From Candidatus Daviesbacteria bacterium (lineage in GTDB: Bacteria; Patescibacteriota; Microgenomatia; Daviesbacterales; UBA10151), in assembly GCA_016176465.1 (NCBI GenBank), contig JACOXD010000003.1:1824-65823 (forward strand): 64,000 bases of DNA, given 5' to 3'. The translations under genes and the position numbers were made by a program. Below, piece by piece: positions 1,407-55,442 of this stretch. Each line of letters begins with the position of its first letter. Position 1 is the first letter of the stretch. Below the pieces are notes generated by a model. The model saw only the letters and a list, made by a program, of their open reading frames with translations. It had not been told where the DNA came from and searched no databases.

Positions 1407-2627
1407 ATGCGGGGTTTTGCCCATCTGGGTTTATTAATATTGCTTTTAATTGGGATTATAGCAGGAGTTTACTTGGTGACATCAGGCAATTTAAACTTTT
1501 TACCCATAGCCAAAAATGGAGAGATAAAGTTTGTTGATTACAATAATCCTAGCCAAGAGATAACCAGTACTTATATCCCTAGGGTAAAGGTGCGCTTAAG
1601 CGCTCCCTGGCCATTTAAAACAATTAGCTCCCCTATTAAAGATGTAACCACAGTTAAAATTACCCTTGCTGAGGATCCTAAATTTAGTAGAAATACAAAA
1701 TCTCTGGAATCACCATTTGATTTAACAAACAAAGGGCAACTAATTGTTGATTACTCCTTCAGCGAGGCGACTACAAGTACAAAAACTAATACCAAAAAAA
1801 CTAAAAAGGAAGAAAAGCCCAAAGGGGAGAAAAAAGTTTTATACGCCAAATTTGAGTCATCAAATAATAAAAGTAAAGTAAAAAATGCTACCATCAAGCT
1901 TTTGCCCGCTCCAGATAGTATTGCAAACCTCCTTTTAAGTACAACTGCGGCTGATTTATTACCTGATGAAGAATTTAGTGTTAACCTATTAGCAAGGTCG
2001 GACCAGGCTGAGGCTAATTTATTTGTAGCCAAATTAAATTTTAGCAAAGAATTTGCCGAGGTCACCTCCATAGAGACATCTGATTCATTTATCAGCCCTT
2101 CTTTTTTTACTGAGAAAAAATTTGATAACAGTGAGGGGACAATTTCTTTGGTAGGCGGAGTCCCAGCTCCAGGCTATAAAACCCAAGGGGAAGATAAAGT
2201 AATGGCAAAAATCAACTTTAAAGCTAAAAACAATGGTCTTTTTGACTTGCAATTTGCTAGTGATTCAGCAATCTATCGCAACTTAGACAATAAAAATATT
2301 TTGGATCTTAAAAACGGTATTAAAATCCCCATAGGTGGTGTAACAGTTTCTCCTTCCCCGCAATCCTCAGACACTGAATCCTCAACTAGCCCCACTCCTT
2401 CTTCCAGCCCTGGGGAAGGTGGCTCAACAGATGGCTCAACTAAGGGTGATGGCAATGGTGATGGAAAAATTGACTTGGAAGACTTATCTATTTTACTCAC
2501 CTATTTTGGATCAAGTGATTTGGATGAAAATATCATTAACTTGGATATAAATAATGATGGAAAAATAAATACCTTTGATTATTCAGGTTTGGTAGCTCTT
2601 CTCAAAAGTTCTGGGGTAATATCTTAA
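1407..2627 (+). CDS. secreted or membrane-anchored protein with a C-terminal type-I dockerin-like duplicated Ca-binding repeat
   Basis: N-terminal hydrophobic helix (LGLLILLLIGIIAGVYLV). Ser/Thr/Pro-rich linker. C-terminus DGNGDGKIDLEDLSILLTYF ... DINNDGKINTFDYSGLVALL matches the dockerin DxNxDGxIxxxD tandem loops. Confidence 0.6.
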   Translation: MRGFAHLGLLILLLIGIIAGVYLVTSGNLNFLPIAKNGEIKFVDYNNPSQEITSTYIPRVKVRLSAPWPFKTISSPIKDVTTVKITLAEDPKFSRNTKSLESPFDLTNKGQLIVDYSFSEATTSTKTNTKKTKKEEKPKGEKKVLYAKFESSNNKSKVKNATIKLLPAPDSIANLLLSTTAADLLPDEEFSVNLLARSDQAEANLFVAKLNFSKEFAEVTSIETSDSFISPSFFTEKKFDNSEGTISLVGGVPAPGYKTQGEDKVMAKINFKAKNNGLFDLQFASDSAIYRNLDNKNILDLKNGIKIPIGGVTVSPSPQSSDTESSTSPTPSSSPGEGGSTDGSTKGDGNGDGKIDLEDLSILLTYFGSSDLDENIINLDINNDGKINTFDYSGLVALLKSSGVIS

Positions 2628-3235
2628 TTATTTTTTTCTAACACCTCATATAGTACTATCCCCAAACTAACAATGACATTCAAGCTTTTATTTACTCCAA
2701 ACATAGGCAATTCTACTATTGCATCAGAGGCGTCTAGTACTTCTTTTGATACCCCTGTTGATTCATTTCCCACAACAAGACATACAGGTAATTTGTACTC
2801 AAATTTATCATAAAGAACTGATTTAGAGGTTTGTTCAACAGAAATTACTTGTAAATTTGAAATTTTAAGTTTTAAGTTTGAAATTGCCTCACTTGCCGAG
2901 GCACAATACTCCCAGTCTACCCACTCGGTTGTATTAATAGAAGCTTTTTTTATCCGATGATTAGGTGGGGTCTCTGTTGCCCCACAAAGGTAAATTTTTT
3001 TAGCTGCCACAGCATCAGCTAACCTAAAAATAGAGCCTATATTATAAGTGTCCAAAACATTGTCCAAAATAATATAGATATTTTGCTTTTTAAGTTTTTT
3101 ATTCATCCCTCGTAGCTTTAGCGAGGTGGGACCCTTTCTCAGTTGATCTGCGTTTAGCTTTAATTTCATTGCAAAATTATATATTTTTATAAATCTAAGC
3201 TCAACTTTCTTGACTAATAATCTTGATTGAGTCAC
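2624..3235 (-). CDS. SpoU/TrmH-family RNA 2'-O-methyltransferase
   Basis: Motifs LDNVLDTYNIGSIFRLADA, LVVGNESTGVS and LPMFGVNKSLNVIVSLGIVLYE are typical of SPOUT methyltransferases. Confidence 0.75.
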   Translation of the reverse strand: MTQSRLLVKKVELRFIKIYNFAMKLKLNADQLRKGPTSLKLRGMNKKLKKQNIYIILDNVLDTYNIGSIFRLADAVAAKKIYLCGATETPPNHRIKKASINTTEWVDWEYCASASEAISNLKLKISNLQVISVEQTSKSVLYDKFEYKLPVCLVVGNESTGVSKEVLDASDAIVELPMFGVNKSLNVIVSLGIVLYEVLEKNN

Positions 3236-5961
3236 AATTAAAATTAATGAGTGCTGCCCGACTATTATCCACTGTTGTGACCTTGGTTTTATTTTTCTTT
3301 TTTCTTCCTAAGCTTTCTCACGCTGAAACAATTAGCTCGTATAATGGTTCACAAGAGCATATATATTCCTTAGCTGAATATAATGGTAAGCTATATGCTG
3401 GGCAAGGTGCTGGCGGAGGTGATGGAGATATTTATGTTTGTACTTCTGGTATTAATTTAACGTGTGATCCATCAGATTGGGCTATCTCTTACAATGGAAC
3501 CCAGGAAGCAATTTATGATTTAGTAGTTTTTAATGGCAAACTTTATGCCGGACAAGGAGATAGTACTGGTGATGGAGATGTTTTAGTTTTTGATGGTACT
3601 TCCTGGACTACATCCTTTAATGGCTCTCAAGAAAGAATTTATAGCCTAGTTGTATTTAATAATAAGTTATATGCGGGTCAAGGAAGTGGTGGTGGAGATG
3701 GAGATATCTTTGTTTGTAACCCCGCAACCTCTAGTAACTCTACAAGTTGTGAAGCTGGAGATTGGACAAAAAGTTATGAGGGTGGCCAAAATGACATCCT
3801 CTCTCTGGCAGTATTTAACAATAAACTCTATGCTGGTCAAGGAAGTGGTGGCGGAGATGGAGATGTTTTAGTTTTTGATGGTACTTCCTGGACTACCTCA
3901 TATAATGGTGCACAAGAAACAATTAGATCTTTGGGTGTATTTAGTGGCAAACTTTATGCGGGAGTAGGACTTAACGGTGGAGATGGGGATATTCTAAAAT
4001 TTGATGGTACTTCCTGGAGTACTTCTTATGATGGAGGCAATGAGGAGATTCGTTCCTTTGCGGTTTATAACAATAGATTGTACGCAGGACAAGGAGTCAG
4101 TGGTAATGATGCAATTGTATTGGTTTGTAATCCAGGAGGAACTACCTGTGATCCAGGAGATTGGTCCCAGTATGAAAATTATCCAGAGGAAACGATTGAT
4201 GATCTTATAGTGTTTAATGATAAACTTTACGGTGGTCAAGGAAAAGATACTAATAACGGAGATATTTTTATTGTCGCCCAAGCTCCGGGCGCCTTTACCC
4301 TAGAACAACCCACCGCTATATGTAAAATACCTCCTCCAGTAATCTGGTCAACTTCCTTTGATAGTAGTCACAACGAGGTTAATAACCCCACAGCTTTCAA
4401 CAATAAATTATATGTTGGAGAGGGCACTGGCAATAATGAAGGAGACATATGGGCTTGTAACCCAGGGACAAATGGGCTTTGTGATCAACAGTCAGAGTGG
4501 ACTAAATCCTATGACGGACCTGACTCTAAAGACTCTATTGAAGCTATAGAAGTTTTGAAAGACAGATTATACGCAGGTGAAGGCAGCCAAGAAGGCGACG
4601 GTGATACCCAACTATTGAACTCTAGTGGAACATCTTGGAGTAAAGTCCATGATCCAGGATCACCAGATCAGATGCGAGCTTTTGTTGAGTATAAAGGCAA
4701 GTTGTACTCTGGTACAGGAGGTGGAGATGATGAAGGAGATTTATATGTTTGTACACCAGCTGCAGATGGATCCTGTACTTCTTGGAGTAAAACCAAGGAT
4801 TTTGGAAGCGGTATTAGAAAAGTGGAATCACTTCTGGCATACAACGAATATCTATATGTTGGACTTGGTAATCAAGGAGGAGATTCAGATGTTCAAAGAT
4901 TTGATGGGACAACCTGGACTAAAGTTTATGATGGAAGTGTTCAAAGAGTAAAATCACTGATTGAGTATAATGGCATACTTTATTTAGGACTCGAAGGTGG
5001 GGCTAATGAAGGAGATATTATGGCTTGTAATCCAGGACCAAATGGAGCTTGTGACTCTGGGGAGTGGAATATTACTGCGTTTGACGGGAACAATAGTTCA
5101 GTTGATGCTATGACTATATTCGAGAATAAGCTTTATATTGTTGAAGGTACAAATGTCCGCTATTGTACACTGGATGCAGATGGCATTTGTAATACTGATG
5201 ATTGGATAAATATTGACAACTTTCCAGGAGACAATGGTCGAGGTATTGAAGTATTCCAGGATAATCTTTATGTAGCAGGTGGAGACAAGTTGTATTTAGG
5301 TACCCCAAATCCTCAAACCAACCCTTATCCTAGTATAACCCTTGATTGGAGTGCCTCTTTGGGCCTTGATACCAATTCTAGACCCGCCAGTGATTATTAT
5401 GAAGTTTACCGCTCAACTAATGGTATTGACTATAGCTTTGTTGCCTCAACCGGTGCTACCTCCTATGTTGATGAAAATAGTTTACTTCCTAACACTTTAT
5501 ATTATTACTATATCAGAGCAGTCAACCAAATTGGTTCAATTAACTCAAACTCGATCTCTATTCTCAGTACTAATTGTGATACTATTCCACCTTCAGGCTC
5601 TATCAGTTTAGTTGATGAGGAGTGTTATACAAAAGTTACTTTTCCTAATCCTTTAAAAATATACGCGCAAGACGACTACAAAGTAACTGAGGTTACTTAT
5701 AATTTGAGGGGTCCGATAGACCAAAACGGATCTGCAAGTTTAGGTGAGGGTAGCGCTCAAGCAGGCTATTGGTATATTCCAAACCTTGTTAATAATTTAA
5801 TCAATGGTTATTATAGATTGCAAGCGCACATAAAAGACATTGGCGGGAATACTTCTGGAACCCAACCTAGGAATTTCACAATTGCTGATAAGTGTAAGAT
5901 TCCTTTTTTAGAAACCACAGGCGGGAATATTCATTCAAATGAGTCAATAGATTTGCCTTAG
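3223..5961 (+). CDS. large secreted repeat protein: about 15 tandem ~47-aa repeats (beta-propeller-like) followed by FN3-like and Ig-like C-terminal modules
   Basis: Signal/TM segment (LLSTVVTLVLFFFFLP). Repeat unit roughly YNG.QE.IYSL.VFN.KLYAGQG.GGGDGDI.V. The C-terminal ~130 aa are paralogous to the end of CDS 6510..7808 and finish with PFLETTGGNIHSNESIDLP at the stop. Confidence 0.7.
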   Translation: MIESQLKLMSAARLLSTVVTLVLFFFFLPKLSHAETISSYNGSQEHIYSLAEYNGKLYAGQGAGGGDGDIYVCTSGINLTCDPSDWAISYNGTQEAIYDLVVFNGKLYAGQGDSTGDGDVLVFDGTSWTTSFNGSQERIYSLVVFNNKLYAGQGSGGGDGDIFVCNPATSSNSTSCEAGDWTKSYEGGQNDILSLAVFNNKLYAGQGSGGGDGDVLVFDGTSWTTSYNGAQETIRSLGVFSGKLYAGVGLNGGDGDILKFDGTSWSTSYDGGNEEIRSFAVYNNRLYAGQGVSGNDAIVLVCNPGGTTCDPGDWSQYENYPEETIDDLIVFNDKLYGGQGKDTNNGDIFIVAQAPGAFTLEQPTAICKIPPPVIWSTSFDSSHNEVNNPTAFNNKLYVGEGTGNNEGDIWACNPGTNGLCDQQSEWTKSYDGPDSKDSIEAIEVLKDRLYAGEGSQEGDGDTQLLNSSGTSWSKVHDPGSPDQMRAFVEYKGKLYSGTGGGDDEGDLYVCTPAADGSCTSWSKTKDFGSGIRKVESLLAYNEYLYVGLGNQGGDSDVQRFDGTTWTKVYDGSVQRVKSLIEYNGILYLGLEGGANEGDIMACNPGPNGACDSGEWNITAFDGNNSSVDAMTIFENKLYIVEGTNVRYCTLDADGICNTDDWINIDNFPGDNGRGIEVFQDNLYVAGGDKLYLGTPNPQTNPYPSITLDWSASLGLDTNSRPASDYYEVYRSTNGIDYSFVASTGATSYVDENSLLPNTLYYYYIRAVNQIGSINSNSISILSTNCDTIPPSGSISLVDEECYTKVTFPNPLKIYAQDDYKVTEVTYNLRGPIDQNGSASLGEGSAQAGYWYIPNLVNNLINGYYRLQAHIKDIGGNTSGTQPRNFTIADKCKIPFLETTGGNIHSNESIDLP

Positions 5962-6010
5962 TCCTGAGCGTACCTGTACTGAGTGAAGTCGAAGTAGTCG
6001 AAGGATTGAC
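5959..6010. repeat. intergenic, degenerate copy of the short palindromic repeat family (tcctgagcg...cgaaggattgac)
   Basis: GC-rich island directly after the stop at 5961. It shares ctgagcg, gtgaagtcgaag and cgaaggat with the intragenic copies in TatD, PolA and SucC. Confidence 0.4.
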
Positions 6011-6041
6011 AAGAAGGCTGAGTTGAGCAACAATTAAAGTA

Positions 6042-6506
6042 ATGGAACAAACTGCCCCAGTAAAATCTAATTCCAACCTAGGATGGATTGTTGGTATTGT
6101 CCTTACCCTCGCAGCTTTGGCTTTAGGTTTTTTTATGGGAAGAGGATTACTAGCAACTAATCCAGGAAGCATTAATAACCAGGCTTCAGGCAGTGCCACC
6201 ATGGTGAAAACCTCACCTTTATTTAAAGCCCAAACAGCAACTATCCAGGGAAAAATAACTAAAATTGACGGATCAACCATCACTGTAACCTCCCAAGATA
6301 ACCAGGCTGAAACTTTTCCTCTTGATAGCAATTTTACTATTTATAAACATACCTCAGGTACATCTTTTGCAGCAGCCTTACCCGGCTCTGATAAGCAGAT
6401 TGAACTAAATAAAGATTCAATAATTGTTTTAAACGTCAAAGATGGTGATTATAAAGTCTCCTCTATCTCATATCTTTCTCCCCCACCAAAACCGCCGGGG
6501 AGGTAA
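6042..6506 (+). CDS. membrane-anchored hypothetical protein
   Basis: N-terminal TM helix (LGWIVGIVLTLAALALGFFMG) and a Pro-rich C-terminus (PPPKPPGR). Lies in the plus-strand secreted-protein gene string. Confidence 0.5.
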   Translation: MEQTAPVKSNSNLGWIVGIVLTLAALALGFFMGRGLLATNPGSINNQASGSATMVKTSPLFKAQTATIQGKITKIDGSTITVTSQDNQAETFPLDSNFTIYKHTSGTSFAAALPGSDKQIELNKDSIIVLNVKDGDYKVSSISYLSPPPKPPGR

Positions 6507-6509
6507 AAA

Positions 6510-7808
6510 GTGAAATTTTTTTGGGCAATTTTTTTATCCTCATTTTTATTTTCGGGATACCTTTTTTTAACACCATTAAAAGTAAATGCAGACTTTAAAG
6601 GGGAAGGATGTACTATTAAACTTACTGACCCTGGAACAAATAGAGAACCAACCTCTTTGGTAATTGGCAAAACTTATGATTTGGAATCTAGCTTAATTGG
6701 CAGCTGGCAACAGGGCTGCTCTGATTGTGGGAATAGCCATAGTATTAGCTTTAGGGAAGTCAGCGAAAGCTATAATGGAATCTACAGTGATGGTGCGCCT
6801 AGATTACCTGTGCCTGGGACTTCGAAAAAAGCGAAGGGGGATTATATCTCACATGGGCAGTGGGACCCTAGTATAATTGTAAATGGACAGTGTAGAGCAG
6901 GAGGAAAAAGAGCTAGTGGTAAGCGTAATCATGAAGCATGTATTGTCTTTAAGAGTTTTAGTCCAGGAAAAGCTCCTCTTGCTCCAGGCGGCAATGGCAA
7001 AAATGGACCCTGGAGAATTAAATTTACCCCCACAGAAGAAGGGACAACAGCTTTTAATGTCAGAATGTCCAATAACATTAATAACTACTCTGGCGGAGCG
7101 AAATGTTTACGAACAACCCGGGTCTTTAATATCATTGGCCAAAATCTTAGTATAAGATCTAATACTAGCTGTAACTTGGGAACTCCTATTGTTAATTTAA
7201 GCTGGGATGCTAACTCTGGAACTGATCCTCAAAACAGACCAGATTCGGATTACTACGAAGTTTATCGCTTGAGTGGCAATAACTATAGTTTATTGGGTAA
7301 TACCCCAAATTTAAATTACCAGGACCGCTCAAATTTAAACCAAAATTCATCTTATAATTACTACATTCGTGCTGTCAATCCAAATGTCTCTACTAATTAT
7401 CCTGCAATGTCAATCAGAACTCCAAATTGCAGCTCCCCTACTATTGTATCAGTGGAGTTAACCAATAAATGTTATAACCGCTCTACATTTCCTAACCCTT
7501 TAAGGATTTATGCCCAAAACGCCTCAGGCATCAATCGAGTAACTTATGAGCTAATTGGAGACCAAAATGCATCCGGTAGCGCCTCATTAAGAGAAGGAAC
7601 TGCAGAGTCAGGTTATTGGCACACTCCCTTTAACTTAAGCAACCTAACTTTTGGGGAATACCAAATATCTGCGCAGGCTAGTGATAATACAGGGGGCTTA
7701 ACTTCCTCAGCGCCCATTGATTTTAGCTTTGCCCAAAGCTGTGAGCAACCCTTCTTGGAAACAACAGGTGGAAATGTTCACTCAAATAGAGAGATTAATC
7801 TACCTTAA
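6510..7808 (+). CDS. secreted protein, paralog of the C-terminal FN3/Ig module of CDS 3223..5961
   Basis: Signal peptide (FFWAIFLSSFLFSGYLFL). C-terminus (SDYYEVYR ... YYIRAVN ... FPNPLRIYAQ ... PFLETTGGNVHSNREINLP) aligns along its full length with the end of the 912-aa protein. Confidence 0.7.
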   Translation: MKFFWAIFLSSFLFSGYLFLTPLKVNADFKGEGCTIKLTDPGTNREPTSLVIGKTYDLESSLIGSWQQGCSDCGNSHSISFREVSESYNGIYSDGAPRLPVPGTSKKAKGDYISHGQWDPSIIVNGQCRAGGKRASGKRNHEACIVFKSFSPGKAPLAPGGNGKNGPWRIKFTPTEEGTTAFNVRMSNNINNYSGGAKCLRTTRVFNIIGQNLSIRSNTSCNLGTPIVNLSWDANSGTDPQNRPDSDYYEVYRLSGNNYSLLGNTPNLNYQDRSNLNQNSSYNYYIRAVNPNVSTNYPAMSIRTPNCSSPTIVSVELTNKCYNRSTFPNPLRIYAQNASGINRVTYELIGDQNASGSASLREGTAESGYWHTPFNLSNLTFGEYQISAQASDNTGGLTSSAPIDFSFAQSCEQPFLETTGGNVHSNREINLP

Positions 7809-8659
7809 TGAATTTAATTACTGTTAAAAAATTTTTAATTACTTTTCTTTTGTTTCTTGAAACAGCTATTTTATTTTTCATGGTTTATTATAGTCAAGTT
7901 TTTGCCCAAAGTTCGGGCAATTGCCTAAAAGATAATATTGGAGCGAGGGTTGATGGTTTGGTCTCTACCCCCAATTTAGTAAGCGATTTAAAAACAAAAA
8001 CTGGTGAATGTATCATTGACAATGCTGCTATCTCTCCATTACAAGAAGCCAGGATAACCAAAATCAAATCTTATGCTGATTTAAAATCTATCTTTTATGA
8101 TCAGGCAAAAACCACATCATTTGTAGAAAAACACCCCCCATTAGTTGGAAACAAAACTCATTCTGATTTAGATTTAGGAGCACTTGGCGGAAAAGATCAC
8201 CTCTATTTAATTCAAGGAGATCTCTCAATAACTGGAAATATTTCTGGAAGCTCAACTGGAATCATATTTGTTGATGGAAACTTAACTATTGGGGATCCAA
8301 CTTTGCCAAGTTATAAATTGCAGTATGGAAATGATGCATCTGGTTTGGTCTTTGTTGTGGGTAAAGATATAAGAATAGATAAGCTTGTCTCACAAATTGA
8401 CGGGGTGATGATCTCCTCAGGAACTATTTGCACTGCTTGGGATAATGGGGTCTGTCCCCAAGGGGATGTGTTGGTTAATGAAGCACTAGTAATTTATGGT
8501 AGCTTAATCTCCTTAGATGAAAGTAAACCTATTAAGTTTAAAAGAACTTTAACAATAAATACAGATGCATCTGAAATAATTAAGACTCAATTTAAATATT
8601 TGGTAATTTTAAAAAACTCTTTTTCTCAGGATTTATTAATTTCTACAGAGATAAATTAA
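7808..8659 (+). CDS. secreted hypothetical protein (possible beta-helix repeats)
   Basis: N-terminal TM/signal segment. Start overlaps the upstream stop (TAATG). Gly/Ser-rich repetitive strands (GNISGSSTGIIFVDGNLTIGD). Confidence 0.5.
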   Translation: MNLITVKKFLITFLLFLETAILFFMVYYSQVFAQSSGNCLKDNIGARVDGLVSTPNLVSDLKTKTGECIIDNAAISPLQEARITKIKSYADLKSIFYDQAKTTSFVEKHPPLVGNKTHSDLDLGALGGKDHLYLIQGDLSITGNISGSSTGIIFVDGNLTIGDPTLPSYKLQYGNDASGLVFVVGKDIRIDKLVSQIDGVMISSGTICTAWDNGVCPQGDVLVNEALVIYGSLISLDESKPIKFKRTLTINTDASEIIKTQFKYLVILKNSFSQDLLISTEIN

Positions 8660-8664
8660 ATTTA

Positions 8665-9210
8665 TCACTTTCCAAAATTCCTTATTTGCTGCTGATACCA
8701 AACAATCGCTTTTTTTAATTCAATCTTATTAAAATCAGGCCATAAAACTTTAGTGAAATTTTTTACTGCTCGCAATATCTCTGATCTGCCACCATATGAT
8801 AGAGCTAAATTAACTGTAATTGTCTTATTATTAGATGTAGCCTGAATAGTTTCTTTTAAAATTTCCTGAATATCTTGTGGAAAGCGCTCAATCTCGCCAA
8901 TTACAAGTAACCTCACCCCATTTTTTTGCAAATCAGATAATACTCTTTTGCCATGTCGGCGCAGGATATTAAAAATAGCCTCTTTCTCCTCATCTGATCG
9001 GTTCCAATTCTCCGTTGAAAATGCCCAAAAAGTTAAAAATTTTACTCCTAATTTAGCAGCCTCCCTAATGACTGGTTTTAGTTGCCTCCTACCAAATTCA
9101 TGCCCCATAAATGATGGCATTAATCTTTTTTTGGCCCATCTTCTATTACCATCCATAATAATTGCAATATGGGAGGGAATATTATTAGGATCAAGCTTTA
9201 AATTAGACAT
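8665..9210 (-). CDS. uppS: undecaprenyl-diphosphate synthase (cis-isoprenyl transferase), short form
   Basis: Signature motifs HIAIIMDGNRRWAKK, FLTFWAFSTENWNR and the RR-x-G region. At 181 aa it is shorter than the canonical ~250 aa. Confidence 0.75.
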   Translation of the reverse strand: MSNLKLDPNNIPSHIAIIMDGNRRWAKKRLMPSFMGHEFGRRQLKPVIREAAKLGVKFLTFWAFSTENWNRSDEEKEAIFNILRRHGKRVLSDLQKNGVRLLVIGEIERFPQDIQEILKETIQATSNNKTITVNLALSYGGRSEILRAVKNFTKVLWPDFNKIELKKAIVWYQQQIRNFGK

Positions 9211-9227
9211 AAGAGAATTTTACACTT

Positions 9228-9773
9228 TTAGAGGTAGGTTATGCGGGGTACAGAAAAAATCCATATTTGTACAACCCTCTCTCTTAAAGGATTAACTCCT
9301 TGCCCATTTCTGCCATCAAATTCAAAAATACCCACCTGTTGATACCTTCCAAGCTCTAATGCTCCATTTTTAAATGGTATCCAAACAGTTGGGTTCGCAA
9401 AAATTAAAGCCCTTATGTGCCTACCAGTATTATGGTCATTATCCAGTTCAGTAGGTGGTCTAAGAGGGCTGTCAGCACAGTTGTGGGTAAAGTCTAGTGT
9501 CGGATAAGGATAGGGAGGTTCCTGCCCCACAACCCACGTTGATCTGGCATCCTCCGGAACTAACACCCTAGAAAACCTTAAAATATCATCTAGCAACTTC
9601 GTTTCTGCTAGTTCATTTACTAACATCCCTAGCGTAGTGTGCTTTGAATGAACCCCTAATATGCCATGCTTCGCTTTTGATTTTTTCAAAGCCGCGTCCA
9701 CATCAGCGGTTAAATCCCAAATAGCACTAGGATTAGGCGATTCAAAATGTAGTTCTTTTATATACAGACCCAT
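9228..9773 (-). CDS. YjbQ/UPF0047-family protein
   Basis: HTTLGMLVNE ... ALELGRYQQVGIFEFDGRNGQ resembles the YjbQ signature (HTSASL...LGTWQGIYLCEFDG). Confidence 0.5.
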   Translation of the reverse strand: MGLYIKELHFESPNPSAIWDLTADVDAALKKSKAKHGILGVHSKHTTLGMLVNELAETKLLDDILRFSRVLVPEDARSTWVVGQEPPYPYPTLDFTHNCADSPLRPPTELDNDHNTGRHIRALIFANPTVWIPFKNGALELGRYQQVGIFEFDGRNGQGVNPLRERVVQIWIFSVPRITYL

Positions 9774-9814
9774 TTAGTTGCAGGTTATGTTACACTATCT
9801 AATTAGACGATTCT

Positions 9815-10393
9815 ATGAGTAAAGACCCACAATTGCCGGATCCGAAATCTATAACTCATCAAAGCTTTGAAATCTTATATAAAAAATTTGCTCTGCCTTT
9901 AATGAAATTTTTAGTTAAAAGAATGGGTGGCAATATGGATGCTGCTGAGGAGGTTTTTTCTCACACTGTGATGGCTGCCTGGAGGGGGTATCACACTTTT
10001 GAACATAAGAGTAAATTTTTTACCTGGCTTTGTAGGATTGGCTTAAATAAAATGGCTGATTATTATAGAGCTGAGATTAATAGAAGATCAGGTTGGATTG
10101 CACCAGGATTAGAAGAACTAGCTAATATTGGTAGTAAAGAGATCTCTCATGAGGAAAGATTAATCTTAAACGAGCTTCGCCAGTCTGTTAAAGATTGTAT
10201 TGCACTGCTACCACCTGAAAAACAACAACTTCTTCATCTTCGCTACTATAAGGAGATGACTCTTAAAAAAATTGCCGAGGCTTTGGGGATCTCTGAGCGA
10301 GCTGCAGAGGGAAAATTATATAGAGCAAGGATTGAGCTAAGAGAGATTATAATTAATAAATATCCTGAATACTCCCCATTTTCCAAAAAATAA
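9815..10393 (+). CDS. RNA polymerase sigma-70 family (ECF-type) sigma factor
   Basis: Region 2 helix (RIGLNKMADYYRAE) and region 4 HTH (LRYYKEMTLKKIAEALGISERAAEGKLYRAR). Confidence 0.8.
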   Translation: MSKDPQLPDPKSITHQSFEILYKKFALPLMKFLVKRMGGNMDAAEEVFSHTVMAAWRGYHTFEHKSKFFTWLCRIGLNKMADYYRAEINRRSGWIAPGLEELANIGSKEISHEERLILNELRQSVKDCIALLPPEKQQLLHLRYYKEMTLKKIAEALGISERAAEGKLYRARIELREIIINKYPEYSPFSKK

Positions 10394-10433: not shown

Positions 10434-11237
10434 ATGAAAAAGGATTTAATTGTTATTAAAGTGGGTGGGAGTGTTGTAACAGATAAGGATAAGGTCAACC
10501 CTACCCCTAGGTTAGACGTTATTACCAATTTAACTAAGCAAGTAAAAAAAGTTTATTCATCTAAAAAATATAGTTTAGTTTTAGTACACGGGGCTGGCTC
10601 TTTTGCTCATCCATTAGCTAAAAAATATAACTTGCATCAAGGTATGAAAACCAAAGAGCAAAAATTAGGAATGGCTTTGACTCATCAATCACTATATAAC
10701 CTAAATAAATTGGTTCTTTCCGCTTTAATAAAACAATCCCTACCGGCAATAACACTAACCCCCCACTCTTTTATTACGCAATCAGGAGGTAAACTAAATG
10801 ACTTTAATTATCAAATTATTAAAGATTTATTAGGAAAAGATTTAATACCGCTACTTTATGGAGATGTAGTGCTAGATAATAAATGGGGATGCTCTATTCT
10901 TTCAGGAGATACTATTGTTTCTTATTTAGCAAAAAAACTTAAAGCGAAAAAGGTAATTTTTTTATCAGATGTTGATGGAATATATGATTGCGATCCTAAA
11001 AAAAATCCTCACGCTAAATTAATTCCTTTAATAAATAATCAAAATTTTAAAAAAGTTTTAGCGGGAATAACTTCAACAAATAAAGATGATGTAACTGATG
11101 AAATGAGAGGAAAAATTTTATCTATTAAAAATAATCTTGCAGGAGCAAAAGTTATAATTATAAACGGTTTTAAGCAGATAAGCCTAGACCTGGTTGTAGA
11201 TGGACACCAATTGGGGACAAGACTGGAATTCTCCTAG
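10434..11237 (+). CDS. isopentenyl phosphate kinase (amino-acid-kinase fold)
   Basis: IKVGGSVVTDK and LVLVHGAGSFAHP are the IPK / amino-acid-kinase glycine-rich and His motifs. About 267 aa. Confidence 0.6.
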   Translation: MKKDLIVIKVGGSVVTDKDKVNPTPRLDVITNLTKQVKKVYSSKKYSLVLVHGAGSFAHPLAKKYNLHQGMKTKEQKLGMALTHQSLYNLNKLVLSALIKQSLPAITLTPHSFITQSGGKLNDFNYQIIKDLLGKDLIPLLYGDVVLDNKWGCSILSGDTIVSYLAKKLKAKKVIFLSDVDGIYDCDPKKNPHAKLIPLINNQNFKKVLAGITSTNKDDVTDEMRGKILSIKNNLAGAKVIIINGFKQISLDLVVDGHQLGTRLEFS

Positions 11238-11823
11238 CATCAACTTCTAGTTGATCAAACACTTCTTGAGGAATTTGATTGCGCACTTCGTAATGCCTAT
11301 AAACTCCAGGAATAAAGTGTGAATTTGATGATTTAAAAGCTAAATAACCTGTAACTACCTCAAATACTCCTGGTCTAAAACTAAGATTGCCTAGCGGCAA
11401 ATTTAAAACCTCATCTATCCTTGCCCAACGAGGACTATCTACTTCATGAGAATGGGATCCAAGGGACAATCTTGCTCCAGGTGCAGTCTCGATTAGGTAG
11501 GCATGTAAGACTATTCCAGGGCTCAACTCGCACGCTCCTAGTCTGATCGAGGCTAAATCATCAGGATCTTTTAATCCCTTAACTTGCAGTTCTTCTCTAA
11601 AAATCCTCTCTGCTGCACTTTGATGGCTCTCTCCTGGCTCAACAGTCTCACAAGGTATCGCCCACATACCCCTAAGTTTGGCTGTCGCCCTTTTATCTTC
11701 TCGTTCTCTCACTGCTGCGAATTGTCCGGGTCTAGCTGGATCAACTACAAAAGCTCCTACGCCTGCAACTCGCTCTAATACTGCGCCCATATATATTAGT
11801 CGTTTAATATTACAAATCCCCAT
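11170..11823 (-). CDS. Nudix hydrolase
   Basis: Nudix box-like GMWAIPCETVEPGESHQSAAERIFREELQV. GC content is visibly higher than the flanks. The 3' end overlaps the convergent IPK gene by 68 nt. Confidence 0.5.
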   Translation of the reverse strand: MGICNIKRLIYMGAVLERVAGVGAFVVDPARPGQFAAVREREDKRATAKLRGMWAIPCETVEPGESHQSAAERIFREELQVKGLKDPDDLASIRLGACELSPGIVLHAYLIETAPGARLSLGSHSHEVDSPRWARIDEVLNLPLGNLSFRPGVFEVVTGYLAFKSSNSHFIPGVYRHYEVRNQIPQEVFDQLEVDARRIPVLSPIGVHLQPGLGLSA

Positions 11824-11890
11824 AATATTGTGTAAAGCAACAAAATTTTTCGTCTAATTAGAGATGGAGCGTTATAGAAAAAGCTCTTAA

Positions 11891-12427
11891 TCAAAAAAAT
11901 TTTTTTTCTTTTAATAAAGTTATTGCTTTGATAGCCCAAGGTGTATAGTTTTGGGGATTTTTTTCTATATCTTTTAAAAAATTATTTTTATCTTCCCACC
12001 TATATTCATAAGCTACTTGCAGATTTAGCCTAACTTCACCATCATATCTGGCTGTAAAAATAATATCATGCTCGTTCTCACAAAAGTCTCCATACTCTGC
12101 AAAATAATTCACTCCCCCATAATTTTTTAAATTTTCAACTTTTTTTATTCCATATTCTTTACCTAAACAACGCAAAGTTGCCTCCTCATCAGTTTCATCC
12201 TTACCATCTTTTTTATGAAGTTGGTGAGTTGAACCTGTAATATCCCAAATATTGTCAAATATTTGATGTTTTCTTCTCTGTAACAATATTTCTCCCTGGG
12301 AGTTATAGACTAAAACAGTGATAGCAAAATGTCGTTTACCTAATCCAGTATGTCCTACACTTTTGGGAAAATACTCACCGCTAAACTTCCCGTTTTCATC
12401 AGCACCCAAAATTATCTGATCAATCAT
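11891..12427 (-). CDS. idi: isopentenyl-diphosphate delta-isomerase, type 1 (Nudix-fold), divergent
   Basis: Aligns with E. coli Idi: [19 protein letters not shown] against [32 protein letters not shown] against NEVCPVFAAR, and a C-terminal PWA. The catalytic Cys position is Ser here. Confidence 0.6.
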   Translation of the reverse strand: [178 protein letters not shown]

Positions 12428-12430
12428 AGG

Positions 12431-13435
12431 TTAAAAAATTTTCCGTGGATTTTTTTCAACAGGAGCAAACCTGATCCTTCTTTCTCTTTCTACTAATTCA
12501 GCTAAACCATCCTCTCTTATATCTTGGACTCCCATCTGCCAGAAAAAGTTTACTACACCTTCCACTAAAACTTCAGGAGTTGAGGCAGCAGAGGTAACAG
12601 CAACTACTTGAGTACCATACATTTCAGGACTTAGATCTTGCCAGCCAGCAATCAACTGTGCAGGAGTTCCCTCTTGCCAAGAAGTCTTGCCTAGCATTTT
12701 ACCATTATGACTTCTTGTACCTGTTACTACTAAAAATTTACCTGCTTTTTTGGCAAGAAATCTCACAGCTTCTTGCCTATCGTCAGTAGCATGACATATA
12801 CCATCGACAATCACCGCATGAGGAAATATTTTACATAAAGCAGATCTCGTTGCCTCAGTTTCAGTCGTACTTAATGTAGTTTGATTCGTAATAATAATCC
12901 CTCTTTCTGTATGATCGTTAGGAAGTTGTAAATTACGAGCTTGATCTATATCCTCTACTGGATAAACTCTATCCGGTGCTACCCCATAAACAGCTAACTG
13001 CTCGGGATGTCCTCTTTTAGAAATATCAATCACATAAGACCCATTTTGGGAAGCCCTTTGCCAAACAATTCTTTGTCTAGTCATAACATAAGGACAAGCA
13101 GTATTAGCCCAGTCTAGTCCTAACTCATCAGCTAACTTAAATTGATAAGGAGGAGTTCCGTGGGCTCTAAAAATTGTTCGGGAACCTTGGGGAATTGAGG
13201 CTAGATCTTCTGGTTCTACCACCCTTACCCCTAATGCTTTTAACCTAGCTATCTCATACTCATTATGAATTGGTTGACCTACGACAGTAGGTCCAGGTTT
13301 CCCTTCTTCTCTTGCTTTTATTGCCTCACCTTCAATAAATTCAACTGTGCGAATTACACCTGCACATTGACCACGAGGATTGGCAAGAAGTATTGTTTCC
13401 GGAATAATTCCCCATGGACGAATTATTTCTGCCAT
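12431..13435 (-). CDS. ispH: 4-hydroxy-3-methylbut-2-enyl diphosphate reductase
   Basis: LLANPRGQCAGV (first Fe-S Cys motif), IFRAHGTPP and NTACPYV match the LytB/IspH signatures. Confidence 0.85.
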   Translation of the reverse strand: MAEIIRPWGIIPETILLANPRGQCAGVIRTVEFIEGEAIKAREEGKPGPTVVGQPIHNEYEIARLKALGVRVVEPEDLASIPQGSRTIFRAHGTPPYQFKLADELGLDWANTACPYVMTRQRIVWQRASQNGSYVIDISKRGHPEQLAVYGVAPDRVYPVEDIDQARNLQLPNDHTERGIIITNQTTLSTTETEATRSALCKIFPHAVIVDGICHATDDRQEAVRFLAKKAGKFLVVTGTRSHNGKMLGKTSWQEGTPAQLIAGWQDLSPEMYGTQVVAVTSAASTPEVLVEGVVNFFWQMGVQDIREDGLAELVERERRIRFAPVEKNPRKIF

Positions 13436-39812: not shown

Positions 39813-41768
39813 TTATGCCATCACCGGAGTGGCTGTAGCTCTACTATTACCGTTTCTTTTTTTACCGACAATTTTTTCAAACTCCGGAGTATCAAGAGTT
39901 TCTACCTCAAGTAGCTTTTTAGCAACTTTATCTAACTTTTCTCTATTTTTGCGTAAAATAGCTAATGCTTGCTGATAGGCTGTATCTATTATTTTTTTTA
40001 TTTCTACATCTATTTTAGATTGCAAAGCCTCAGATATACCTGATCCTTCATCAGGAGACCTTTGCCACATCCCAAACAAGGCTCTTGGTCTAATATTTAT
40101 AGGTCCAAGGGAGCTCATTCCATATTCCGTTACCATTTCCCTAGCAATATTAGTTGCTACCTCTAAATCATTAGCAGCCCCGGTTGAAATATCTTTAAAG
40201 ACTAACTCCTCGGCTGCTCTTCCTCCTAAAGCTGTGGCGATTTGCTCTAAGAGGCGTGATTTGGTCTCATTGGAGCGATCCTCGGTTGGTGGAAACATGG
40301 TGTGTCCCCCTGTCATACCACGAGATACTATAGTAATCCTATGGACAGGATCCACATGAGGCAGTGAGTGACCCACCATTGCATGCCCTCCTTCATGATA
40401 AGCAGCTAATTTTCTATCTTCTTCTGATTGCATTCTTTTTCTCTGTGGGCCTAACTTAACTTTAGTAGCTGCCTCTTCTAAATCTTTAGAATCAATTGCT
40501 TTTTTAGCTTCTCTGGCTGCTAAGATTGCTGCCTCATTTAACATATTAGCTAAATCAGCCCCAGAAAACCCAACAGTCCGCCTAGCAATCCTCTCAATAT
40601 CTACATCAGCAGTAAATGGTTTTCCCTTCATGTGCAGCTTAATAATTGCTTTTCTCTCTTCCAAATCAGGCATGTTTAAAACAACTCTTCGATCAAATCT
40701 ACCAGGTCTAACTAATGCCGGATCCAAGAGATCTGGTCTATTTGAGGCCCCGATTACGATTACAGATTCATTTGGAGCAAAACCATCCATCTCAACTAAT
40801 ATTTGATTTAGAGTTTGTTCCCGCTCATCATGCCCCCCAGAAAAACCCATGCCCCTCATCCTGCCAATACTCTCAATTTCATCTATAAAAATAATTGCCG
40901 GAGCGTTTTTCTTAGCCTGAGCAAACATATCCCTAACTCTTGCTGCTCCAACCCCAACCAACATCTCCATAAATTCAGATCCAGCTATAGAGTAAAAAGG
41001 TACCCCAGCCTCACCTGCTACACTGCGCGACAAGAGGGTTTTCCCCGTTCCGGGTGGACCCACCAGTAATACTCCTTTAGGAGTTCTGGCTCCTATCTCT
41101 TTATACTTTTGCGGGCTTTTTAAAAAGTCAACTATTTCTTCAAGCTCTTTTTTAGCCTCATTTACTCCGGCCACATCAGAAAATTTAATTTGTGGTTGAT
41201 CCTTGGTAAAAATTCTTGCTTTTGATTGACCAAATGAGAAAATTCCCTGAGCTCCTTCTCTGGCTTGGCGAATGATTAAAATAAAAAATATAACCATGAC
41301 AATAATAGGTAAAACAGTACCTAAAACTCCAAGCCATGCTTGCTGCATGGAGATATCCTTAACCTCAATTTCTACTTTTTTAGGATCAACTTTGGCACTT
41401 TCTAAAATTTTATAAATAGATTCCCCTGATTCTTTTCTGGAACTGGCAAATCTTTCCTCATCATTACCTTTTTTACCTTCGCTAGAAGGCAAGCTTTGCT
41501 TATATTCAACAAAAACTTTATCCCCCTCAAGGGTAATTTTTTTCACCTTTTCAGTTTTTATATCCGCTAAAACTTGAGATAATGGAACATCTTTGCCAGG
41601 GTTAATTCCACCTGTTAAATTAACAAAAAGAAAAAAAGCGACCAAGGCAATCAAGGCATAAATTCCAAAGCCTTTTAAAAAAGAAATTAAGCGGTTTTGG
41701 GGAAGTTTAGGAAGCTTTTTTTTACCATTATCAAAGGATAAAAAACCTTTTTTTCCGGGATTTACCAT
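39813..41768 (-). CDS. ftsH: ATP-dependent zinc metalloprotease FtsH
   Basis: AAA Walker [12 protein letters not shown] region, and zinc-binding HEGGHAMVG. Confidence 0.9.
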
Positions 41769-49739: not shown

Positions 49740-49789
49740 AATTTGCTTCCTATCTATAAATTACTATATACTAATGATACAGTATTCAT

Positions 49790-53308: not shown

Positions 53309-53319
53309 TTAATTTTTTG

Positions 53320-53636
53320 TTGCGGGGGTTGGATTCGAACCAACGACCTCGAGATTATGCCTAGATATCTAGTTAGACTATACCTTCACCCCGATGTTAT
53401 ATATCGGGGGCTCGGCGTTTAATGGGAGTTTATATTCCAAAATATTTGGTACCTTCCATATAAGCAAAGCTTGATGCTTCGCATTAAGTCGTTACGGGGT
53501 CCGATGTTACATCGGACTTCCCACGGTATTATCCTTTAACTTAAGATTTCACCGTTATGAGCCGAGTTATCATTAAAGATTACTCTCTAATGAGCCCAAT
53601 TTTGAGCCTCGCGAGCTACCACTGCTCTACCCCGCG
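53320..53636 (-). tRNA. initiator tRNA-fMet (CAU) interrupted by a group I intron (exon 1 = 53605..53636; exon 2 = 53320..53359)
   Basis: Exon 1 CGCGGGG-UA-GAGC-AGUGGUA-GCUC-G-CGAGG-CU and exon 2 CAUAA-UCUCG-AGGUC-GUUGG-UUCGAAU-CCAAC-CCCCGCA-A fold into a cloverleaf. C1·A72 mismatch (initiator hallmark), U8, canonical T-loop. Confidence 0.65.
53360..53604 (-). other. group I self-splicing intron (~245 nt) in the anticodon loop of tRNA-fMet, between positions 33 and 34
   Basis: 5' exon ends in U. The intron starts CAAAAUUGGGCUC, an IGS-like sequence complementary to exon GAGGCU. P7-like pair GACUUAAUG ... GGUAUAGUC. Hairpins UCCGAUGUAACAUCGGA and CCCCGAUAUAUAACAUCGGGG. Terminal hairpin CUAGAUAUCUAG then omega-G. 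No ORF inside. Confidence 0.6.
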
Positions 53637-53675
53637 GTATAAGCTTTGACAGTATACAGGAATAAGGTATTGTTT

Positions 53676-54032: not shown

Positions 54033-54063
54033 CTTTTTACCCTTAAGTTGCTAAACTTGCTGC

Positions 54064-55005: not shown

Positions 55006-55107
55006 AATGGAACGCATTATTTGCCCACTTAATCGTAGTGCAGATTGTATACAAGTTCACACCCTCAGGGTGGGTTACGTTCACACCTTACTATACTAAT
55101 ACCCTAC

Positions 55108-55139
55108 TGGCGGACCCGGACTCGATCGAACCAGGAACC
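55108..55139 (-). repeat. degenerate duplicate of the tRNA-Ile 3' half (att-like direct repeat)
   Basis: ggcggacccggactcgatcgaaccaggaacc is near-identical to ggcggacctggactcgaaccaggaacc at 55444..55471, apart from a small internal insertion. It lies 100 bp downstream of the integrase gene. Confidence 0.5.
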
Positions 55140-55157
55140 AACCCTGCACTATAATAA

Positions 55158-55424: not shown

Positions 55425-55442
55425 TCAAAATAGAGCCTGTTG

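Follow-up and report, generated by a model that had tools for sequence, protein, structure and literature searches.

What could account for two otherwise different secreted proteins, encoded in one gene cluster of the uncultured CPR bacterium Candidatus Daviesbacteria, ending in nearly the same peptide at the stop codon? The two genes belong to a surface-gene cluster at 1407-8659 of the window, by which we mean the whole 64,000-nucleotide stretch of DNA analyzed here. An earlier note, made from the letters of the DNA, had described five plus-strand genes for secreted or transmembrane (TM) proteins interrupted by a minus-strand SpoU gene. This layout was borne out, with every ORF at the coordinates which that note had reported and a hydrophobic N-terminal segment in all five plus-strand products. 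The features are as follows:

1407-2627, plus strand: 406-aa protein with an N-terminal TM anchor, a cohesin-like module (sub-threshold) and a C-terminal type I dockerin
about 2013-2300, plus strand: the cohesin-like module, sub-threshold against PF00963
2624-3235, minus strand: SpoU-type RNA methyltransferase (PF00588, E=2e-33)
3247-5961, plus strand: tagged cargo protein 1, 904 aa from this ATG, or 912 aa from the TTG at 3223
5902-5958, plus strand: C-terminal tag 1, PFLETTGGNIHSNESIDLP, followed by the stop codon at 5959-5961; 69 bits against the tail profile (P0060)
6042-6506, plus strand: small single-pass membrane protein of 154 aa
6510-7808, plus strand: tagged cargo protein 2, 432 aa (HYS91_00405 of Candidatus Daviesbacteria)
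7152-7418, plus strand: FN3-like domain of the 432-aa protein (AF2 beta-sandwich)
7443-7730, plus strand: Ig-like domain of the 432-aa protein (AF2 beta-sandwich)
7749-7805, plus strand: C-terminal tag 2, PFLETTGGNVHSNREINLP, followed by the stop codon TAA at 7806-7808; 72 bits against the tail profile
7808-8659, plus strand: putative tag partner or hub, 283 aa
8665-9210, minus strand: undecaprenyl-diphosphate synthase (UppS) homologue

The ATG at 3247 is the likelier start of the first cargo protein because its 904-aa product equals P0060. The SpoU gene, which is also present in L018, L020, L022, L023 and the P0038 locus, is a housekeeping landmark bounding the surface-protein island in related genomes and stands outside the tag system. 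The other conserved boundary, likewise outside the tag system, is UppS, whose copy in the window is without about 55 internal residues; Prenyltransf genes flank the partner gene in L016, L018, L019, L022, L023, L025 and L026.

Both cargo proteins terminate in PFLETTGGN[IV]HSN..I[DN]LP with the stop codon directly after, and a six-frame translation of the window recovers this motif only in these two places. As the earlier note had maintained, the peptide is conserved on diverged DNA: the two tags share 15 of 19 residues, 9 of those 15 are specified by different codons, and identity over the whole C-terminal module amounts to 44% for the protein and 51% for the DNA. The synonymous divergence shows purifying selection on the tag. 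The shared module is likewise real and longer than the ~130 aa first ascribed to it, with 42% identity over 255 aligned positions (BLASTP, E=3e-53). Upstream of it the first protein has a signal peptide and about 13 propeller-like repeats (DUF6242, 39.2 bits against a Pfam threshold of 29), and the second a signal peptide and an N-terminal domain of unfamiliar fold; in both, an FN3-like and an Ig-like domain then precede the tag, as they also do in P0062, P0068 and P0090. The FN3 and Ig assignments of the earlier note are sub-threshold throughout in Pfam (fn3 at E=1e-3 and 0.05, Big_13 and Big_7 weak) and find their support in the AF2 model of the 432-aa protein (m3803fe33de26), in which residues 215-303 and 312-407 each form a confidently predicted beta-sandwich (pLDDT about 90). 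Structure prediction, which that note had also proposed, places the tag outside the Ig fold: the last Ig strand comprises residues 403-407, and residues 408-432 are modelled as coil with pLDDT falling from 76 to 53. The last 45 residues of both proteins contain neither a hydrophobic nor a basic tail.

A 30-column tail profile searched exhaustively against 1.84 billion proteins gave 55 matches at E<=1e-3. True carriers make up 52 of these, and in every one the motif falls in the final 13-20 residues. Scans for the pattern in DNA, unbiased in that no stop codon was demanded, uncovered 11 further true loci (all 10 found in metagenomes and one in GTDB genomes), and in 11/11 the motif lies at a stop codon, which follows the final proline by 0-6 residues. 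The other two GTDB matches were chance occurrences inside a cytidine-deaminase-like ORF. The consensus is P-[FWY]-[IL]-[QK]-T-T-G-G-D-V-H-[ST]-N-x-x-I-[ND]-x-P(GGP), with 0-7 residues after x-P; a logo built from 58 unique tails has T, G, H and N in all of them, P in 54/58 and I in 57/58. Against the docking reading given below, the invariant polar T, D, H, S/T and N of the tag could point to chemistry or ligand binding.

About 60 proteins whose upstream domains are unrelated carry the peptide at their very C-terminal end, in line with the proposal that it is shared by otherwise different surface proteins; these domains include propeller repeats, PA14, CARDB and LamG-like modules and others, and P0070, P0071, P0088 and P0111 have a proline-rich linker before the tag. 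Since the upstream domains vary, proline-rich linkers can precede it and the modelled tail lies outside the Ig fold, the peptide is an autonomous tag, independent of the preceding domain. It is also locked to the C-terminus and under purifying selection. An N-terminal hydrophobic signal was detected in 43/52 carriers, and the other nine appear to be fragments or to have mis-called starts (checked for P0002 and P0072). A C-terminal TM segment occurs in 0/52 carriers, no C-terminal basic tail was found on them, and neither Pfam, NCBIfam nor the literature has an entry matching the tag; sorting-signal models and inspection of the tails thus agree with the earlier view that it is not of the LPXTG or PEP-CTERM type. 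Every tag carrier and every partner with a taxon name belongs to Daviesbacteria.

The 283-aa protein had been regarded simply as another secreted member of the cluster; it is indeed secreted, and what this description missed is its role as the likely partner of the tag. It comprises a Sec signal peptide (predicted to be cleaved after VFA and before QS), a conserved N-terminal region with two cysteines, a right-handed beta-helix and a conserved C-terminal helix. Its family contains 57 clusters, each with its own start codon and signal peptide; none passes a Pfam threshold, and one matches pAdhesive_15 at E=0.002. In fold it is similar to ice-binding proteins and choice-of-anchor-A domains (Foldseek E-values 0.1 or worse, TM-scores 0.34-0.44) and also to ComZ and tapirins, and some members have C-terminal extensions such as LamG or TSP1. 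The conserved N-terminal region modelled alone gave no confident fold (pLDDT <50). The hub looks structural rather than enzymatic. Only a single copy of its gene was seen per locus, in a constant chromosomal position flanked by SpoU and UppS, and neither hub nor cargo displays an evident cell anchor.

Cargo and hub genes are genetically linked. Of 13 partner loci, 11 also contain a tagged gene, with the partner immediately downstream of it in nine (the window, L007, L008, L010, L016, L019, L020, L025 and L026) and elsewhere in the locus in L011 and L023. The two genes overlap by their start and stop codons in L008, L016 and the window, where the stop of tag 2 runs into the hub ATG (TAATG). No tagged gene was found within ~10 kb of the partner in L018 and L022, and no partner in the available sequence of four tagged loci (L006, L009/L012, L013 and L024). 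Furthermore, P0011, P0049, P0052, P0056 and P0058 have the partner domain joined directly to the N-terminal domain of P0112, a tagged protein whose gene adjoins the partner gene of L010 (E=1e-10); the tag is absent from all five fusions, and no protein was found with both tag and hub domain. A resemblance between the tag and a rung of the partner beta-helix (TTGGDVHS and VVGGDVNI) was not significant by hhalign (P=0.067), with negative HMM scores. A predicted pairing of tag subtypes with partner subtypes did not hold in L026.

This comparative evidence makes the 283-aa protein the most likely partner of the tag. We therefore put at about one in two the probability that the terminal peptide is an autonomous, lineage-specific docking tag on Sec-secreted, adhesin-like Daviesbacteria proteins, with the downstream beta-helix protein as its likeliest receptor; the linkage points to an undescribed tag-and-receptor system for surface-protein assembly. 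We infer physical binding between tag and hub, and with it a binding site, a covalent or non-covalent mode of attachment and a hold on the cell. Cargo and hub would each be exported via Sec and lose their signal peptides, leaving the cargo tail exposed beyond the last folded domain or a proline-rich linker. The tail might then bind to the hub. It would probably do so by forming a strand-turn-strand rung or cap, likely near the conserved two-cysteine region and the last coil (INGSLISL, R246, E256 and K263), so that one common module could mount several different cargo proteins. Candidates for holding the complex on the cell would be the TM-anchored cohesin-like/dockerin protein and the small TM protein. 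In the latter an N-terminal TM segment is followed by a small beta domain and the end is rich in proline, and it matches no Pfam family; an iterated HMM search found homologues near tagged or partner genes in L009, L013, L020, L022, L023 (two copies) and L026. It is a candidate membrane anchor and, being linked to tagged genes comparably, also an alternative tag receptor.

We consider it rather unlikely that the tag is instead a sorting or processing signal for an enzyme encoded elsewhere, a transpeptidase or peptidase that would cleave in T-T-G-G and join the protein to the wall or a second protein; the beta-helix would then be a co-regulated island member or a substrate. The near-invariance of T, G, G, D, H, S/T and N is more like that of a recognition or catalytic site than of a simple strand, Q-T-T-G-G may loosely recall the T-G cleavage sites of sortases, some tagged genes are far from any partner gene (L006, L009 and L024), and the island always adjoins the gene for UppS, a lipid-carrier synthase. 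However, the tag offers no hydrophobic segment or basic tail for membrane retention of a substrate, no NCBIfam or Pfam sorting-signal model matches it, no conserved enzyme gene was seen in the window or in 20 related loci, and the cargo-hub fusions argue for direct physical association. The nearby sortase or peptidase envisaged by the earlier note did not materialize: a regex search and reading of ORF N-termini revealed no sortase or pilin motif in the window, and Pfam searches on 16 of its ~55 ORFs had FtsH (Peptidase_M41, 39813-41768) as the sole peptidase match.

That the tag binds something other than a protein encoded in the locus (the wall or S-layer of the cell itself, a glycan on host cells or a metal ion, for example), with the hub acting as an independent adhesin, appears unlikely. 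The adhesive character of the ice-binding and choice-of-anchor-A domains that share the hub fold, the ligand- or metal-binding habit of D, H, S and N, and the two hub loci without any tagged gene would suit such a role, but it leaves the tight gene adjacency, the start/stop overlaps and the fusions in need of another cause, and both families are confined to the same lineage wherever a taxon is named.

The dockerin of the first gene is genuine (Dockerin_1, 33.4 bits against a gathering threshold of 22.9, E=5e-8, residues 346-395, nt 2442-2591), which raises the possibility, quite improbable in our estimate, that the cluster is a cohesin-dockerin type assembly in which this protein organizes the other secreted proteins. 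The same protein has a cohesin-like module, and two homologues of it are encoded upstream of a small TM gene and a tagged gene in L009. Against this, the module scores 17.8 bits with a PF00963 threshold of 24.1 (nt 1890-2360 scanned alone), no cohesin was found above threshold, the profile recovered no cohesin from the PDB, Pfam detects neither domain in the other cluster proteins, and among L001-L025 homologues of the dockerin protein were found in L009 only (L009 only in L001-L022, none in L023-L025). The dockerin is tied to the tag by neighborhood alone. Dockerin modules outside cellulosomes are not unusual, and to call this one unexpected was an overstatement; its suggested relevance to an epibiotic lifestyle was speculation. 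Finally, that the motif is the mere conserved end of a homologous Ig domain, or what is left of a gene that once continued into the downstream ORF, is suggested by the common FN3-plus-Ig module and is largely refuted already, with scarcely any probability left to it, by the many carriers with unrelated preceding sequence or a proline-rich linker, the end of the modelled Ig fold at residue 407 before a coil tail, the separate start and signal peptide of the downstream family in 57/57 clusters and the lack of any protein uniting tag and hub domain.

The proposed tag-and-receptor system may be compared with sorting signals served by dedicated enzymes (LPXTG/sortase, PEP-CTERM/exosortase, GlyGly-CTERM/rhombosortase, PGF-CTERM/archaeosortase and the T9SS C-terminal domain). 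As in these, an extreme C-terminal signature marks many unrelated secreted proteins of one lineage and one cognate gene is seen per locus. Unlike them, the tag lacks both a transmembrane helix and a basic tail, does not amount to an 80-residue beta-sandwich and is not accompanied by a sortase-like partner, its cognate gene encoding a secreted beta-helix without a recognizable catalytic domain. The partner family differs from ice-binding (DUF3494) and choice-of-anchor-A/pAdhesive_15 beta-helix domains in falling below every Pfam threshold, and choice-of-anchor-A proteins bear LPXTG, PEP-CTERM or T9SS anchors whereas the partner has none of its own. ComZ of Thermus thermophilus and the tapirins of Caldicellulosiruptor are beta-solenoid proteins linked to type IV pili; in contrast, the Sec signal peptide of the partner is of the ordinary kind and lacks the prepilin G-F-T-L-x-E motif, and no pilin-motif ORF turned up in the window.

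In donor-strand and split-domain complementation (chaperone-usher and type V pili; SpyTag/SpyCatcher-type split CnaB) a terminal peptide completes or extends the beta structure of another protein, and the strand-turn-strand pattern of the tag is loosely like one beta-solenoid rung; this is a mechanistic analogy only, with no homology and no sign of strand insertion or an isopeptide bond. Set against cohesin-dockerin systems, the tag has 19-25 residues rather than ~70 and is without EF-hand calcium loops, and it would bind a beta-helix, its putative receptor, in place of a cohesin jelly-roll. The proposed system has the same logic, in which a conserved docking module ends a varied set of secreted cargo and a dedicated receptor is encoded nearby, and a genuine dockerin protein is present in this window too.

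Six genes make up the secreted-protein cluster of the window, and ORF calling placed all of them where the earlier note had put them; a UppS homologue follows.

1407-2627 (+): 406-aa dockerin protein
2624-3235 (-): SpoU methyltransferase
from TTG 3223 or ATG 3247 (+): 912-aa or 904-aa tagged protein
6042-6506 (+): 154-aa small transmembrane (TM) protein
stop overlapping the start at 7808 (+): 432-aa tagged protein
7808-8659 (+): 283-aa secreted partner, or hub
8665-9210 (-): UppS homologue

All five plus-strand products begin with a hydrophobic segment, and the minus-strand gene at 2624-3235 is the SpoU methyltransferase it had been taken for (PF00588, E=2e-33). Which codon opens the 912-aa ORF is uncertain: at TTG 3223 it would overlap the region around the GTG with which the divergent SpoU gene begins (at 3235), and ATG 3247, which gives the 904-aa database form P0060, is more plausibly the true start. 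Exact database matches of the window proteins (HYS91_00405 and HYS91_00410) come from a Candidatus Daviesbacteria MAG, Daviesbacteria being part of the Microgenomates group (CPR).

The 912-aa and 432-aa proteins were recognized from the outset as sharing a C-terminal module, which BLASTP recovers at 42% identity over 255 aligned positions (E=3e-53), and in both of them the motif PFLETTGGN[IV]HSN..I[DN]LP stands directly before the stop. The accompanying claim that the protein is conserved and the DNA diverged likewise holds, the whole module being 44% identical in protein versus 51% in DNA. The two tails are identical at 15 of 19 residues, 9 of these 15 being specified by different codons, which together with the values for the whole module indicates that the tail is under purifying selection and is not the outcome of a recent duplication. 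The FN3 profile (PF00041) scored below threshold on the shared module (19.4 and 14.2 bits vs 25), and a homology search with the 432-aa protein retrieved only itself and one relative, P0002.

An exhaustive search of 1.84 billion representative proteins with a 30-column profile made from three tails (E<=1e-3) returned 55 matches, and 52 of them are true carriers, all with the motif within their last 13-20 residues. The false matches are two LRR-like repeat proteins, P0064 and P0093 (LPKLETVGGDVYINS), and one low-complexity repeat, P0095. The LRR-like repeat of the former two, otherwise unrelated proteins (LPKLETVGGDVYINSDAK), resembles the tag core QTTGGDVHSN, and this resemblance suggests that the tag may be shaped like one rung of a beta-solenoid. 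Independent confirmation was obtained with degenerate DNA patterns that contained no stop codon, scanned in GTDB genomes and in metagenomes. Among the GTDB genomes a single locus was true; it belongs to a further Daviesbacteria MAG and encodes a LamG-like protein of 1008 aa with KKPFLKTTGGDVHTNEFINIP directly before the stop. The two remaining matches, both in Clostridia, were due to chance (cytidine-deaminase-like ORF/motif). All ten metagenomic loci were true, each ending 0-6 residues past the final proline, and no tag was found in the viral contigs searched.

Composition of the tag in 58 unique tails (a tag peptide: PFLETTGGNVHSNREINLP; consensus form: PWIQTTGGDVHSNTRINTPGGP)
Position 1: P 54/58
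Position 2: F 26, W 21, Y 10 of 58
Position 3: I 45, L 12 of 58
Position 4: Q 46, K 9, E 3 of 58
Position 5: T 58/58
Position 6: T 41/58
Position 7: G 52/58
Position 8: G 58/58
Position 9: D 53/58
Position 10: V 54/58
Position 11: H 58/58
Position 12: S 44, T 14 of 58
Position 13: N 58/58
Positions 14-15: any residue
Position 16: I 57/58
Position 17: N 34, D 8 of 58; others occur too
Position 18: any residue
Position 19: P 51/58

Past the final proline comes either the stop or a short extension, most commonly GGP, so that 0-7 residues follow the motif in these 58 tails. What precedes the tag varies: in 18 of the 58 tails it is an Ig-like domain whose closing Cys stands three residues ahead of the proline, in other carriers PA14, CARDB or LamG-like domains, and in P0070, P0071, P0088 and P0111 a plain proline-rich linker. 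The AF2 model of the 432-aa protein contains two confident beta-sandwiches, an all-beta domain at residues 215-303 and a second at 312-407. The earlier note had allowed that the tail might merely complete an Ig strand; this fails in the model, because residues 408-432 form a coil (pLDDT 76 falling to 53) beyond the last Ig strand (403-407). Hence the tail is distinct from the Ig fold, and it is an autonomous C-terminal tag, for which no Pfam or NCBIfam model gave a match.

The gene that follows that of the 432-aa protein, its ATG overlapping the preceding stop (TAATG), encodes the partner, whose family comprises 57 clusters at 90% identity, all taxon-named members being from Daviesbacteria. 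Across related loci from genomes and metagenomes the partner gene is repeatedly linked to tagged genes. A partner-family member is the next gene after a tagged one in L007, L008/L015, L010 and L020/L021, lies one gene further on in L011 and about 1.1 kb away in L023, and in L025, which has two tagged genes, follows the second. Seen from the other side, in L016/L017 (SWIQTIGGDVHSNTRINTPGGP-stop), L019 and L026 the tag terminates the gene directly upstream of the partner; in L018 there is no surface gene upstream. Altogether, 11 of 13 distinct partner loci have a tagged gene, in 9 directly upstream, and each of the 13 has a single partner gene. Tagged genes occur elsewhere too, in L006, L009/L012, L013 and L024, with no partner in the sequence available. 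In one Daviesbacteria genome (L022) the gene directly upstream (6543-10001, +), its stop overlapping the partner start, encodes a 1152-aa FN3-rich protein that ends ...ITVTTPS-stop and is untagged, with no tag remnant nearby in any frame; the partner there (P0054) is among the more divergent members, and the system may be degenerating in this genome. A further line of evidence comes from fusions. We found no protein combining tag and partner domain, and in five partner-family members (P0011, P0049, P0052, P0056 and P0058) an extra N-terminal domain is fused straight to the partner domain with no intervening tag. This domain is homologous (E=1e-10) to the N-terminal domain of the tagged protein P0112, whose gene adjoins the partner gene in L010. 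Such fusions constitute Rosetta-stone evidence that cargo, as we term the tagged proteins, and partner associate, with the cargo on the N-terminal side of the partner. Tag subtypes (H-T vs H-S; GGN vs GGD) were also compared with hub subtypes; the L026 pair broke the predicted H-T rule, and the pairs are too few for a correspondence to be drawn.

An ordinary signal peptide, its end reading ..(F/Y)A|Q, is common to all members of the partner family. It is followed in the mature protein by three parts that are all conserved, namely a region with two cysteines (C..RA.GLVSTP...G.C[VI]ID.KAAF.PFKIPSY), a repetitive beta segment and a terminal part (INGSLISL...PI.F.R.L...PAE.IN.QPKYLVILR.L.SDT.QKWSEI). 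In an AF2 model from the 57-sequence alignment (pLDDT 81, pTM 0.69), residues 85-270 form a beta-rich core predicted with confidence, and there are helices at 89-98 and 262-272; residues 33-83 are well conserved, yet have pLDDT <50. No member has a Pfam domain above threshold. Foldseek ranked ice-binding proteins at the top, but with E>=0.1 and TM-scores of 0.34-0.44, and weak matches were seen to pAdhesive_15 (choice-of-anchor-A, PF20597; 1/57, E=0.0023) and DUF7305 (1/57, E=0.074), with none of the 57 members matching DUF3494. From the Foldseek ranking and the pAdhesive_15 match we therefore read the partner as a predicted right-handed beta-helix resembling ice-binding/choice-of-anchor-A surface modules, with no demonstrable membership in those families. 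The fold of this class has been described (PMC11645318), as has its role at the surface (bioRxiv 10.1101/2023.03.06.531300). Mimicry by the tag of a rung of the hub itself was considered; the best matches fell on the VVGGDVNI rung, but scores were negative and not significant (hhalign P=0.067).

Between SpoU and UppS the island has a fixed place in the chromosome, and other genes also lie in or beside it. Homologues of the small TM protein lie beside tagged or partner genes in L009, L013, L020, L022, L023 and L026, that is, in at least seven loci including the window. These proteins of 130-190 aa, for which we found no Pfam family, combine a single TM segment with a small beta domain, which bears the motif GKIT.(I/V)(D/E)G, and are rich in proline at their end; they are candidates for the membrane anchor of the system or for an alternative receptor. 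Type IV pilin-like genes (TIGR02532, above cutoff) directly follow the partner in L019 (8786-9937, +) and L011 (2142-3368, +), their products bearing large C-terminal domains of DUF1554/endostatin-like or LamG-like type; this position hints that the hub may be connected to pili in some genomes. In L026 the partner is directly followed by a gene (11023-12744, +) for a 573-aa protein with Peptidase_S74, an intramolecular chaperone of phage tail-spike/endosialidase-type proteins, and then by a small TM protein and UppS. Toxin-antitoxin modules (PIN/MazE-like; HicAB; RelB/YafQ) occur in or beside the island in L020 (2371-4706) and L019 (1511-2652). The UppS homologue of the window has only 181 aa vs 236 in its L025 orthologue; missing from its interior are about 55 residues, the conserved IRTGG..RLSNFLLWQ..YSE segment among them, which would reflect either an in-frame deletion (probably inactivating) or an assembly collapse. 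Elsewhere in the window, the region of about 47800-58700, with raised GC (0.39-0.41) and a sign change of GC skew at 48-54 kb, is a possible integrated mobile element with the following genes.

47793-49739 (-): 648-aa ORF, no Pfam family
49790-53308 (+): 1172-aa ORF, no Pfam family
54064-55005: tyrosine integrase (Phage_integrase, E=1e-29)
56268-58631: TraG/VirD4-like coupling ATPase

Based on the linkage and the fusions we propose, with a probability of roughly 0.5, that the cargo tail docks on the hub. Cargo and hub would be secreted separately, and the exposed tail, probably taking a strand-turn-strand form, would then dock near the conserved N-terminal region of the hub, which is unfolded when modelled alone, and its conserved last coil; in this manner a single hub could present several interchangeable adhesin-like proteins. 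Quite improbable, in our estimate, is the stronger proposal that tag and hub form a hitherto undescribed protein-ligation or ultra-stable docking pair, in which the tail would add a rung or cap to the beta-helix and perhaps be covalently locked there. The invariant Asp/Asn, His, Ser/Thr and Asn of the tag may in that event lock against the invariant Lys263, Glu256 and Arg246 of the hub.

A peptide at the extreme C-terminus of secreted proteins could instead be read by a processing or sorting enzyme, which we regard as unlikely. An N-terminal signal-like hydrophobic segment is present in 43 of the 52 carriers, and the others seem to be fragments or to have mis-called starts (P0002 and P0072 were checked). 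A C-terminal TM segment is found in none of the 52, and the two with a hydrophobic stretch in the last 45 residues owe it to Pro/Val-rich linkers upstream of the tag. The initial impression that the tag has no TM/basic tail of LPXTG or PEP-CTERM type was correct, and the hydrophobic TM segment and basic tail of exosortase, rhombosortase or archaeosortase-type ends are likewise absent; NCBIfam/TIGRFAM sorting models matched neither the window proteins (E<=1) nor four further tagged proteins (E<=0.01). Likewise, there was no Pfam or NCBIfam match to the T9SS C-terminal domain (Por_Secre_tail, TIGR04183), a beta-sandwich of 70-100 residues, the conserved unit here having only about 19. Neither a sortase nor a pilin motif was detected in the 64-kb window by regular expressions, by reading of ORF N-termini or by Pfam searches of 16 ORFs. 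The partner itself has no recognizable catalytic domain, no NCBIfam match and no type IV pilin signature (prepilin leader, G|F-T-L-x-E, TIGR02532), and some members have C-terminal extensions of their own (LamG-like, TSP1 or Cys-rich), all of which is more in keeping with a structural hub than with an enzyme.

Binding of the tag to a non-protein ligand or a host surface is a further reading to which we assign a rather low likelihood.

It is very unlikely that the cluster is organized through cohesin-dockerin interactions. The dockerin reported in the first gene is real, Dockerin_1 (PF00404) scoring 33.4 bits against a gathering threshold of 22.9 (E=5e-8, residues 346-395), and its duplicated calcium-binding loop and helix segment is evident in translation as DGNGDGKIDLEDL and DINNDGKINTFDY, EF-hand models matching the first loop weakly. 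The protein combines an N-terminal TM anchor, a cohesin-like region and Dockerin_1, the Cohesin match being below threshold with the region scanned alone (17.8 bits vs 24.1, E=0.004). A profile of the protein found no cohesin among PDB sequences, and a Pfam scan of the cluster proteins disclosed no further one. Two homologues of the dockerin protein lie upstream of a small TM gene and a tagged gene in L009, and the other related loci searched (L001-L025) have none. Finally, the tail as a domain end or split-gene remnant is largely refuted, and with tails that follow plain linkers or lie beyond the last Ig strand we accord it a negligible probability.

The docking proposal bears on the presumed life of CPR/Patescibacteria as cells attached to others, and we know of little work on how they display and exchange surface proteins. 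The system is compact: a short C-terminal peptide marks variable adhesin-like proteins (with propeller repeats, PA14, CARDB, LamG or FN3/Ig), and these are genetically coupled to a single conserved protein, a predicted beta-helix. Neither Pfam, NCBIfam nor the literature searched describes the system; GGDVHS is absent from that literature, in which we found nothing relevant on the tag motif, on dockerin or cohesin in CPR, or on Patescibacteria sorting signals. The system is apparently confined to one lineage, all taxon-named examples being Candidatus Daviesbacteria, with metagenome contigs carrying no taxon name. Should cargo dock on the hub by its tag, this would be a new solution to surface display without sortase or cohesin-dockerin, and the adhesin repertoire of Daviesbacteria would become definable from sequence alone; the 19-residue tag and its 25-kDa receptor could moreover serve as an affinity or ligation pair. 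Were they a ligation pair in the cell, interchangeable adhesins would be mounted independently of sortase in CPR, and biotechnology would gain a new short-peptide tag-catcher pair.

Among known systems, the tag differs from dockerins in lacking calcium-binding repeats, from LPXTG and exosortase-type signals in lacking a TM segment and basic tail, and from T9SS substrates in lacking their type of C-terminal domain; unlike sortase systems, no sortase-like enzyme was seen in the 64-kb window and related locus fragments. It is nevertheless reminiscent of both cohesin-dockerin and sorting-signal systems, in that one C-terminal signature is found on many cargoes and is paired with one cognate gene.
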